A model generated the notes under the pieces. The model was not told the DNA's origin and searched no databases. It worked only from the letters and a program-made list of their open reading frames with translations. The translations under genes and the position numbers were made by a program. Positions 1 through 1,853 of a stretch of 1,853 nt of DNA are shown here, piece by piece. The DNA is taken from NCBI RefSeq assembly GCF_003334335.1, contig NZ_QOWQ01000098.1; one strand, 5' to 3'. The first letter of the stretch is position 1. Every line of letters starts with the position of its first letter. This stretch comes from Escherichia coli (GTDB lineage Bacteria > Pseudomonadota > Gammaproteobacteria > Enterobacterales > Enterobacteriaceae).

Positions 1-631
1 GTGGTCCGGGTGGTCCGGCCTCTCCACGTGGGCCGGTGTCACCTTTCGGCCCCGGCGGTCCGCCCGGGTCACCTTTATCGCCCTTCGGTCCCTGTGGACC
101 TGTTTCTCCCCGTTCTCCCTTTGGCCCCGGCTCACCTTTTGGTCCGACCGCCCCCGTTGCCCCGGCTGGTCCCTGTGCCCCTGTGGCACCCTGTGGACCT
201 GTGTCCCCCTTCTCGCCCGCCGGTCCCCGGGCATTCTCTGCCCGTTTCTTCGCTTCCTCTGCACTCGCCGCCGACGCTTCAGCACGCTTCAGGATTTCCG
301 CTGCCACCGCTTCCAGCTCTGCAAGCGCTTTCGGGTAATACTGCGCCTCATCCTGTTCCATCAGAAATTTATTCAGCGTTCCCGGCTCAGAATCCGCCTT
401 CACCAGAATGTCACCCACATACGACGGGGCGTACCCTTCCGTGTTCAGCGTCACCCGGTACCACCCCGGCTCCACATCAAAACTGTAACTGCCGGTTTCC
501 CCCGGCTGCCCCTGCGCCACCGTGGTGACTATCACTGTCTCTGTGGTGCGTCGCGCTTTCAGCTCTATGGTGCATCCCGGCACCGGCTTCCCGGTGCCGT
601 CCTTCAGCACGCCCGATATTCTGACTGTCAT
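1..631 (-). CDS. stf: Side tail fibre protein, Stf-like N-terminal domain followed by collagen-like Gly-X-Y repeats; partial, 3' end runs off the window start
   Basis: The minus-strand frame (plus-strand triplets starting at position 2) is open from the ATG at 629-631 to the window edge; I checked every plus triplet in that frame for tta/cta/tca and found none. GGGAGA lies 5 nt upstream of the ATG. The translation [28 protein letters not shown]... matches, from memory, the N-terminus of lambda Stf ([17 protein letters not shown]...). Residues ~136-210 are Gly-X-Y triplets ([55 protein letters not shown]...). It is absent from the supplied ORF track, probably because it has no in-window stop. 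Confidence 0.8.
2..226 (-). repeat. Collagen-like Gly-X-Y triplet-repeat coding region within the stf-like gene
   Basis: Nineteen consecutive G-X-Y triplets from residue 136 (plus ~226) are followed by a 1-residue register shift and then more triplets to the window edge. Very GC-rich DNA (hand count 45/60 G+C over 1-60). A 14-bp exact direct repeat CCCTGTGGACCTGT occurs at 90-103 and 189-202. The proline-rich plus-strand ORFs 1..528 and 36..338 are the antisense shadow of these Gly/Pro codons. Confidence 0.8.
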
Positions 632-636
632 AGATT

Positions 637-642
637 TCTCCC
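637..642 (-). promoter_or_regulatory. Shine-Dalgarno sequence for the stf-like gene
   Basis: Plus-strand tctccc at 637-642 reads GGGAGA on the minus strand, separated by a 5-nt spacer (AATCT) from the ATG at 629-631. Confidence 0.6.
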
Positions 643-644
643 AT

Positions 645-677
645 AAAAAAAACCGCAGTACCGGTTACCCGGTCTGC
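645..677 (-). terminator. Intrinsic-terminator-like hairpin plus T8 tract between J and stf, on the coding (minus) strand
   Basis: The minus strand reads GCAGACCGG-GTAA-CCGGTACTGC (9-bp GC-rich stem with a 1-nt bulge and a 4-nt loop; plus coordinates 655-677), then GG, then TTTTTTTT (plus-strand A8 at 645-652). The T-run ends 13 nt before the stf ATG. Pairing was done by hand; no free energy was computed. Confidence 0.45.
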
Positions 678-713
678 GATCAGGGGTATAAATTGTGACT
701 GGCTGGTGTTAAA

Positions 714-815: not shown

Positions 816-1853
816 TCACGATGCGGTATCAAAATCGTCTGTATAGGATTTCAGGTAAAACAGAACCGGGTCCGGGATCCGAATTTGACTCGTATCATGA
901 AGTATTGAACCACCCATGTAAAAAAGCACACCTGCTTCATACCTGAATGTAATTTCAACCCGCGCATCACCCTGTCCGGCAGGAATACCCCATGAGCCTG
1001 ACGCACTTCCGCCAACATCAGAATATACCGGCTCATATCTGCTGGCGTTTTTGGAAATCTGGACCTCCCGCTCCCCGGTTTTGACTTTGCCTGACCTGGC
1101 ATGAACGACAACTTTGTCATTTATCTTCATGATGAATTCACCTCTGGAAAAGGAATACGCCATAAGCATAAGCTTGCGATCAAACGGCATGTTGTCTTTC
1201 AGCAAAATCATTTTCTGAAAAGTCAGCTGGTTCTGAGTCATTACGCCCTGCCCCATATCAACCGTGTATCCCTTGACGATATCACCAATGATTCGGTCAG
1301 CGCTCATCGTTCCATTAATGGTGCAGTCTTCCGCAATCGTCACGTTATTCAGCGTACCGGAACTGGCACTGATATTCCCGCTGATATCGGCATTACGGGC
1401 CGTCAGCCTGCCGTCCGGCGTCAGGGAGAATGCCGGGGGATTGCCGCCGCTGGTAATGGTGGGGGCGGTGAGCGTCTTTATCAGCGCCTCATTGATAAAC
1501 GTCTGTCCCCCCTGCGTGACCAGTGCGGGTGTGGTATCACCATTCTCCGGATTAATGAATGCCACGCGGTCCGCTGCCAGCAGTATCTGGCTCTGCATCC
1601 CGTCAGGGGTGTTCTCAATACCGGCACCGATACCGGCAATATAGCGACGACCATCCTGCATCTGCTGTAGCTTCACCGCCCACATGCTGTTCAGGTCATT
1701 ATTTGTGTCCGTCTGCACACGCTGGATTTGCTGTATGGTGGCGTTCTGGTCCTCCAGCGTTTTACTGACCGTCTGCGTGATTTCATTGCGGGTTTCTGTG
1801 ATGGTGGTCTGCATTTCCGCCATCTCGTCCTTCAGCTGACTGTTGTCAATCTC
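816..1853 (-). CDS. J: Host specificity protein J (tail tip / central tail fibre), C-terminal portion; partial, 5' end lies beyond the window end
   Basis: The ORF track gives 816..1823 minus (335 aa) with the TGA stop at 816-818. The same frame stays open from 1824 to 1853 (…EIDNSQLKDE before the listed M), so the M at 1821-1823 is internal and not the true start. The translation contains MWAVKLQQMQDG, YIAGIGAGIENTPDGMQSQILLAADR, LTAPTITSGGNPPAFSLTPDG and NVTIAEDCTINGT, which I recognise as the conserved C-terminal third of lambda gpJ. The last ~151 aa diverge (see findings). Confidence 0.9.
   Translation of the reverse strand, partial: EIDNSQLKDEMAEMQTTITETRNEITQTVSKTLEDQNATIQQIQRVQTDTNNDLNSMWAVKLQQMQDGRRYIAGIGAGIENTPDGMQSQILLAADRVAFINPENGDTTPALVTQGGQTFINEALIKTLTAPTITSGGNPPAFSLTPDGRLTARNADISGNISASSGTLNNVTIAEDCTINGTMSADRIIGDIVKGYTVDMGQGVMTQNQLTFQKMILLKDNMPFDRKLMLMAYSFSRGEFIMKINDKVVVHARSGKVKTGEREVQISKNASRYEPVYSDVGGSASGSWGIPAGQGDARVEITFRYEAGVLFYMGGSILHDTSQIRIPDPVLFYLKSYTDDFDTAS

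Follow-up and report, generated by a model that had tools for sequence, protein, structure and literature searches.

The window analyzed here, a stretch of 1853 nucleotides of Escherichia coli DNA, contains the 5' part of a prophage tail fibre gene, in the collagen-like coding region of which a 14-bp sequence is present twice in direct orientation. The question raised by this locus is whether the two copies serve as a substrate for slipped-strand or homologous recombination and thereby generate strain-to-strain differences of 99 bp (33 codons) in the length of the fibre shaft without a loss of frame, as was proposed in an earlier note on this sequence.

Fibre Gene and Its Genomic Context

The fibre ORF is located on the minus strand, begins with an ATG that is the reverse complement of positions 629–631 and is open at the left end of the window; residue n corresponds to window positions (632 − 3n)..(634 − 3n). 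The features of the gene and of the adjoining region were as follows:

2..226, minus strand: part of collagen-like domain 1 lying in the window (Gly-X-Y, residues 136–210), read from the translation; the domain goes on beyond the left end to residue ~252
50..64, minus strand: one-residue break of the Gly-X-Y register, G190-G-P-P-G194 in GDPGGPPG, read from the translation
227..631, minus strand: start codon (629–631) and prophage tail-fibre N-terminal domain, residues 1–134 (Pfam PF08400, PF13620)
651..681, minus strand: terminator-like hairpin with a U8 run behind it, in the intergenic region between J and the fibre gene, ending ~12 nt before the fibre ATG
816..1853, minus strand: 3' part of the gene of gpJ (tail tip attachment protein J), open at the right end of the window, with an ORF at 816–1823 from an internal ATG

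The locus was 100% identical to that of NZ_CP027586 (L001), a chromosomal prophage of E. coli 2012EL-2448, in which gpJ (5814–9344 according to the RefSeq annotation) is followed by the fibre gene (480 residues), a DUF4376 gene (tail-fibre-assembly-like) and a gene with a YadA C-terminal (Eib-like) domain. The order of gpJ, fibre gene and DUF4376 was also found in L004–L009 and L012. The YadA-anchor (Eib-like) gene is located at L001:1385–2647, downstream of the fibre and DUF4376 genes, and is also present in L011 and L014; since it follows the tail-fibre module, the prophage is P-Eib-like. Phage P-EibA had an identity of 98.9% with the gene over 71% of its length, and the recently deposited PhiR5/PhiR12 phages had an identity of 97–100%. 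The gene, thus, encodes the side tail fibre of an E. coli prophage of the lambdoid, P-Eib-like type.

The fibre protein, named in RefSeq as 'prophage tail fiber N-terminal domain-containing protein', consists of an N-terminal fibre domain, a coiled coil, collagen, a fibre repeat, collagen and a variable C-terminus. PF08400 (phage_tail_N) matched residues 1–134 (model 1–134 of 134, E = 2.1e-42), PF13620 residues 5–82, PF03406 (Phage_fiber_2) residues 260–301 between the shaft segments (E = 7.8e-16), and PF01391 (Collagen) residues 311–403 (E ~ 1e-8); the C-terminal part of the N-terminal domain (about residues 95–135) is helical and rich in alanine and glutamate. In the full protein, no Pfam match was obtained past residue 403 (the last ~75 residues), including PfC (PF06820), and no separate Pfam Collagen match was obtained for the repeat-bearing domain 1, the Gly-X-Y structure of which was established by direct reading. 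The Gly-X-Y runs comprised 19, 20 and 31 triplets with one interruption of one residue, which corresponds to collagen of the PF01391 type. The interruption is retained in paralogous fibres as GDPGGPQG; since it is conserved there and had already been described in 2012, the idea that it is a scar left through recombination by the 165-nt indel of L003 was rejected.

The intergenic hairpin had a minimum free energy of −23 kcal/mol (z = −3.5), with none of 200 shuffled sequences equally stable, and is presumably passed by Q-antiterminated late transcription. It should be noted that the content of the cargo slot separating gpJ from the fibre gene varies: none here (184-nt spacer), Ail/Lom in L005, L009 and L012, and Hok/Gef in L102.

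Coding Origin of the 14-bp Repeat

The sequence CCCTGTGGACCTGT was found without mismatches at 90–103 and 189–202, with a start-to-start distance of 99 nt, and both copies were translated on the minus strand as TGPQG in one register, in agreement with the earlier note. The copies and a degenerate relative are the following:

189..202, minus strand: 14-mer copy 1, ACAGGTCCACAGGG in gene orientation, gene nt 430–443, encoding T144-G-P-Q-G148
90..103, minus strand: 14-mer copy 2, gene nt 529–542, encoding T177-G-P-Q-G181
171..184, minus strand: degenerate third copy with two mismatches against the 14-mer, encoding TGAQG

Both the codon phase and the Gly-X-Y phase of the pair are identical, the distance being 33 codons, and TGPQG is spelt with the same five codons. 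The similarity around the copies extended over 39 nt (74%) and no further, and corresponds to GE(K/R)G(D/E)TGPQG, a decapeptide occupying residues 139–148 (copy 1) and 172–181 (copy 2); the TGPQG motif is recurrent across the fibre family. Tandem Repeats Finder detected no period-99 array, that is, no tandem periodicity of 99 nt. The shorter repeats said to encode GPKG or GEKG were also present: direct reading of the sequence and its translation gave PGPKGD for 38–55, GPKGE for 131–145 and KGDKGD for 68–85, the last with GDKG in place of either motif.

The frequency of repeats of this size in coding DNA of such composition was assessed with two coding-aware null models, in which either codons were permuted inside their class (G, X or Y) or the order of entire 9-nt units was randomized. 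The probability of a longest exact repeat of at least 14 nt was 0.06–0.13 for the part of collagen domain 1 visible in the window, 0.12–0.35 for the whole of collagen domain 1 and 0.41–0.72 for the collagen sequence of the gene taken together; between its two collagen domains, the full gene contains a longer exact repeat of 17 nt. Dinucleotide shuffling of the whole window gave three matches with at most two mismatches in 0 of 200 trials. Because the coding-aware shuffles yielded a 14-nt repeat in 6–35% of trials, such a repeat is ordinary for Gly-X-Y coding DNA. Thus, the 14-bp pair is the DNA image of the decapeptide recurring in collagen domain 1, a dispersed short repeat of a size common in Gly-X-Y sequences written with few codons, and no tandem 99-bp unit is present.

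A third exact 14-mer was found in collagen domain 2 of alleles whose protein ends with ...FQRAY, in about one-third of loci. All three exact copies are spelt ACA-GGT-CCA-CAG, in which ACA and CCA are non-preferred codons of E. coli, and this hints at common descent or conversion over pure compositional coincidence. Gene conversion was considered as the source of the third TGPQG in L029, L030 and L079 (TGAQG to TGPQG) and rejected, as the change was a single G-to-C substitution with no templated patch.

Spacing of the Pair in Genomes, Contigs and Proteins

The allele type was present over at least 80% of window positions 1–640 in 42 of 5426 complete E. coli genomes, and the length of this segment was constant among the matches listed. 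A search with the full gene revealed length differences from 9 to 72 nt and none of 99 nt among the 60 records listed, and the length variants fetched from it all mapped outside window 37–226; no change in the length of this segment was seen in any complete genome or isolated phage examined. A survey of 5.8 billion proteins with a cluster look-up gave 262 proteins of the family, 40 of which begin the collagen domain as in the window. TGPQG motifs 33 residues apart were found in 34 of these 40, the other proteins being truncated or devoid of one copy, and the peptides predicted for a 99-bp deletion or duplication were absent from all 262.

A single degenerate pattern covering both parental copies and both predicted recombinant junctions (TTCGGTCCCTGTGGACCTGTGTCCCC for the 99-bp deletion and GTGGCACCCTGTGGACCTGTTTCTCC for the 99-bp duplication) was used to scan 24 IMG/VR and 59 metagenome contigs, at least one 14-mer with defined flanks being demanded. 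Both parental copies were 99 nt apart in 24 of 24 and 53 of 59 contigs, respectively; the contigs retaining both copies numbered 78 of the 83 scanned. The deletion junction was found in none of the 83; the remaining cases were explained by contig ends, SNPs and one 1-nt frameshift, the last of which (contig L060, spacing of 98 nt after a 1-nt frameshifting deletion) was the sole spacing exception where both copies remain. In one metagenome-derived IMG/VR contig, L025, the 9 nt after copy 2 are those otherwise found after copy 1, which makes a junction of the duplication type in which 23 nt match the context of copy 1; the allele is complex, with a net change of −84 nt, and is known from this single contig. 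The junction suggests that the two copies can exchange. It should be noted that many of the sequences come from clonal STEC or UPEC lineages and are, therefore, non-independent.

The indels bounded by the two repeats that the earlier note expected in alignments of orthologues were not found. The spacing remained fixed at 99 nt, with no clean deletion or duplication in ~40 complete genomes, 83 contigs and 40 proteins, and by the terms of the note itself such invariance refutes its interpretation for this pair and for a 99-bp unit. A slipped-strand contingency locus is recognized by units arranged head to tail and by length polymorphism; the 14-mers show neither trait, since they are separated by unrelated sequence at a distance of 99 nt and their spacing, L060 excepted, is constant.

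Length Variation across the Fibre Family

Collagen domain 1, taken to begin at the first Gly and to end at the residue preceding the QKGVV fibre repeat, was represented by 30 distinct DNA alleles in 101 loci and varied from 42 to 139 residues on backgrounds otherwise 99–100% identical. Relative to the window allele, eleven simple deletions were identified (9, 18, 27, 45 (three different), 63, 108, 165, 192 and 255 nt), with junction repeats of 4, 5, 5, 5, 6, 6, 7, 8, 8, 11 and 12 nt (mean 7.0). As a null, all 3353 distinct deletions preserving both the frame and the Gly register were enumerated; their mean junction repeat was 1.0 nt, only 6% had one of at least 4 nt, and the mean of the natural deletions was not attained in any of 200,000 resamplings. 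Since the observed junction repeats far exceed the null, natural shaft deletions do fall at short direct repeats.

Within the window, the only length-polymorphic site was a short tandem repeat:

1..18, minus strand: perfect tandem 9-bp repeat (GTGGTCCGG x2; CCGGACCAC x2 in gene orientation), gene nt 614–631, encoding GPP-GP

Three copies of the unit (an extra GPP, i.e., a 9-nt insertion) were present in 13 of ~100 loci, including the isolated phage PhiR5_1, and both the tandem arrangement and the variable copy number of a contingency locus were, thus, found at this site. Thus, the claim that in-frame repeats alter shaft length holds for the family, in which eleven deletions at 4–12 nt repeats and the 9-bp tandem repeat bear it out, but not for the 14-mer pair.

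Eight of the eleven deletions were distal to gene nt 595 (to the left of window 37), where 27% of the substrates of at least 5 nt are located (binomial P = 0.002). Length variants were present in complete genomes or isolated phages (L005, L007, L009, L012 and L018), one of them a 27-nt deletion spanning window 10–36 in the complete genome L007, and are, therefore, not merely assembly artefacts. The events surviving in complete genomes and isolated phages were of 9–108 nt and extended from window 36 leftwards and beyond the window.

The three deletions touching the proximal segment came from metagenome scaffolds or a truncated gene, and all involved the 14-mer copies or adjoining sequence. The junction microhomology of the 255-nt deletion (metagenome scaffold L002), ACAGGTCC, is the first 8 nt of copy 1; that of the 192-nt deletion (L014/L015), CGGGGAGAAAC, is the 11 nt directly 5' of copy 2 in the gene; and the 165-nt deletion (L003) takes out both copies. 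In addition, a 699-nt in-frame deletion (L016), found in metagenome scaffolds only, joins copy 2 to the third exact 14-mer in collagen domain 2; its junction consists of the 14-mer plus CCGA, the partner copy belonging to another allele type. Altogether, one or the other copy of the pair was located at the junctions of three rare larger deletions, with a partner site that differed in each. The fibre gene of L014/L015 (P0178, 210 residues) is truncated after the 192-nt deletion; past ...GPAGSVA the sequence gives way to DNA of no relation to it (RIFVLNGNCLF...), suggestive of a decaying prophage that underwent an insertion or rearrangement.

An assembly artefact was considered as the source of the deletion variants. 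Assemblers usually use k-mers longer than 4–12 nt, and such an origin is unlikely given the shorter junction repeats; it is excluded for the variants of complete genomes and isolated phages, and may apply to L002, L003, L016 and L025, each known as a single scaffold from a metagenome. The clusters of P0015 and P0017, two of the seven 90%-identity clusters inspected and together comprising 198 of the 216 members, contained mostly partial proteins ending inside the collagen region; short-read assemblies evidently break in the fibre gene, so length variants from draft assemblies need care.

The 14-nt pair is the longest single substrate among the 3353 possible deletions, and the 12-nt substrate and one of the three 11-nt substrates were seen as natural deletions. 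A pure slippage model, therefore, predicts a frequent 99-nt deletion, and its absence calls for an explanation by sampling or selection. The results show that the 14-mer pair has no clean recombinant and at most feeds very rare variants.

In a sister subfamily (P0108, P0056, P0021 and P0043; 616–717 residues), a near-perfect tandem unit of 36 residues, GATGATGPQG(P/A)...(T/A)GAPGAKGEK, each with TGPQG, was present in one to four full copies, the copy number corresponding to protein lengths of 616, 652, 688 and about 724 residues. A 108-bp tandem array was sought with Tandem Repeats Finder in the sister-subfamily gene L102 (570-residue allele) and not found, so the copy-number variation of this unit is documented at the protein level only. 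The 14-mer was also considered as a sharp mosaic breakpoint with this subfamily, since the megablast matches end at window 188, but this reading was not supported, as the similarity decays gradually, N-terminal identity is only ~90% and the site itself has two differing nucleotides.

A longer 'tail fiber protein' with a different N-terminus, downstream of a 'phage adaptor protein' gene, was identified at L010:2035–3996 and L011:2035–3969. It is homologous to the fibre studied from about window 56 or 100, sharing the distal portion of collagen 1 together with the Pf2 repeat and collagen 2, and contains a tandem duplication of an 11-residue-plus-(P/A) segment. The C-terminal domains of close alleles of the fibre gene studied are of three unrelated kinds, ending with ...IKTE, ...FQRAY and ...FQRIA, and the breakpoints lie around L001 gene nt ~1027–1109 (collagen domain 2). 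The scattering of these breakpoints indicates an exchange of modules inside the collagen sequence.

Possible Mechanism and Alternative Explanations

The repeat quite probably reflects a recurring decapeptide, with slippage generating the length polymorphism of the family, mostly in distal parts of the shaft, and with the 14-mer pair being at most a rare contributor. According to the anatomy of the junctions, short in-frame repeats would be substrates for RecA-independent slipped misalignment or microhomology-mediated deletion, and selection for the frame and the Gly register (a continuous triple helix) would then filter the variants, leaving a polymorphism of fibre length. The prevalence of short distal events may be due either to slippage falling with distance or to a constrained proximal shaft. 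If each residue contributes about 0.29 nm (Ghosh et al. 2012, PLoS One 7:e37872, PMC3368898), a change of 33 residues would amount to ~9.6 nm, and the span of 42–139 residues to ~12–40 nm.

That the pair itself is an active recombination substrate, with 99-bp (33-residue) shaft variants circulating among strains, is very doubtful. It is the longest direct repeat of collagen domain 1 in a family whose deletions are strongly repeat-associated, L025 bears the diagnostic duplication-type junction, and each copy joins a rare deletion with another partner; however, the allele type yielded no clean 99-bp event in the genomes, contigs and proteins surveyed, and the allele of L025 is complex and comes from one metagenome-derived contig. 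Moreover, efficient RecA-dependent recombination in E. coli reportedly usually requires ~23–27 bp, so for a pair of 14 bp only events of the slippage type are plausible. Highly improbable is an origin of the copies as relics of an ancient, since diverged tandem duplication of a 99-bp (33-codon) shaft segment: the spacing, an exact multiple of 9, the 39 nt of 74% similarity and the identity of 8 of the 10 residues of the decapeptide are consistent with it, but in-register Gly-X-Y repeats are always spaced by multiples of 9, the 33-residue segments are unrelated outside the decapeptide, and a period-99 array is lacking according to Tandem Repeats Finder.

It is rather unlikely that the exact 14-mer was kept or spread by duplication or conversion as a shared 'linker' for the in-frame exchange or deletion of collagen and receptor-binding modules between co-resident prophages. 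Such a role is suggested by the third exact copy in collagen domain 2 of about one-third of loci (the ...FQRAY alleles), by the identical codons of all copies and by the 699-nt deletion connecting copy 2 with the third copy, although this deletion is known from metagenome scaffolds alone. Alleles 99–100% identical over the first ~340–370 residues bear the three unrelated C-terminal domains, with breakpoints scattered in collagen domain 2, and the paralogous fibre with a different N-terminus joins the sequence at window ~56 or ~100; however, the module breakpoints occupy many positions, none of them at the 14-mer. The homology with the sister subfamily fades gradually, its site differing at two nucleotides, and a repeat of 14 nt is nothing unusual under the codon-aware nulls. 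In favour of such a role, Desiere 1998, as cited in PMC7242381, proposed that collagen-like repeats are hotspots of phage recombination. Thus, slippage at short repeats, mainly distal, with the pair as at most a very rare contributor, is the preferred explanation.

An extension of it, according to which the collagen shaft is a built-in length-tuning region, is unlikely. Here, the distal half of domain 1 and domain 2 would tolerate frequent in-frame, repeat-mediated indels that tune the reach of the fibre to the depth of the O-antigen or capsule, while purifying selection would maintain the proximal window 37–226 for some particular function, e.g., register, stability or docking near the coiled coil. 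Although the best slippage substrate, the 14-mer pair, is located in this proximal segment, its length was constant in the complete genomes and isolated phages examined.

Relation to Known Systems

For the collagen-like proteins of EHEC prophages, EPclA–D, Ghosh et al. 2012 (PMC3368898) described the architecture PfN-PCoil-Col-Pf2-Col with a single G-X-P-G-G-P-X-G interruption and reported that the lengths of the Col domains vary in steps of three residues. The fibre studied belongs to this EPcl family. The protein studied resembles EPclB in PfN (PF08400), the alanine/glutamate-rich helical segment, collagen, Pf2 (PF03406) and a second collagen domain, as well as in the single break of the same form, collagen lengths varying by multiples of three residues and a site downstream of J. 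In contrast to EPclB, PfC (PF06820) is absent from its C-terminal ~75 residues, and the protein is, therefore, EPclB-like rather than a strict member of EPclB. The host prophage is P-Eib-like with a downstream YadA/Eib gene, whereas the EPcl proteins belong to O157 Stx or Sp prophages, and the 2012 study of EPcl was made without an analysis of DNA junctions or microhomology.

With lambda Stf (orf401/orf314) and K-12 StfR, the fibre shares the N-terminal domain, the Phage_fiber_2 repeat, the position after J (with or without lom) and a tail-fibre-assembly-like gene next to it. Lambda Stf is not known to have collagen-like Gly-X-Y domains. [quoted passage not shown] 2012, PMC3368898).

Deletion or recombination within collagen-like repeats has been described in several viruses. 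In PMC7242381, the hotspot proposal of Desiere 1998 is cited together with a deletion in S. thermophilus phage Sfi21 and an 81-nt deletion in ORF8 of the Guarani virophage, and the antireceptor genes of S. thermophilus phages (VR2 region) are a further case (PMC5601072). In-frame deletions of collagen repeats in attachment proteins are tied there to changes of host range (PMC7242381, PMC5601072). The Sfi21, VR2 and Guarani cases involve tandem units of at least 27 nt or deletions observed experimentally, in contrast to the dispersed 14-mer without a clean recombinant here.

Deletion between short direct repeats by replication slippage has reportedly been observed in E. coli. The end points found here are similar in that they lie in direct repeats of 4–12 nt, tens to hundreds of nucleotides apart, and differ in that the mechanism is deduced here from the anatomy of the junctions.

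Since the variation of Col length and the hotspots in collagen repeats are already in the literature, the finding is an instance of a known phenomenon. The small addition made here is the quantitative evidence that natural deletions of the shaft sit at repeats of 4–12 nt and the finding that the flagged 14-mer pair is not among the used sites. In lambdoid phages, Stx-converting and Eib-carrying prophages among them, both the rate of adsorption and the host range are set by the side tail fibres, and the length of the shaft is, therefore, a plausible adaptive variable.
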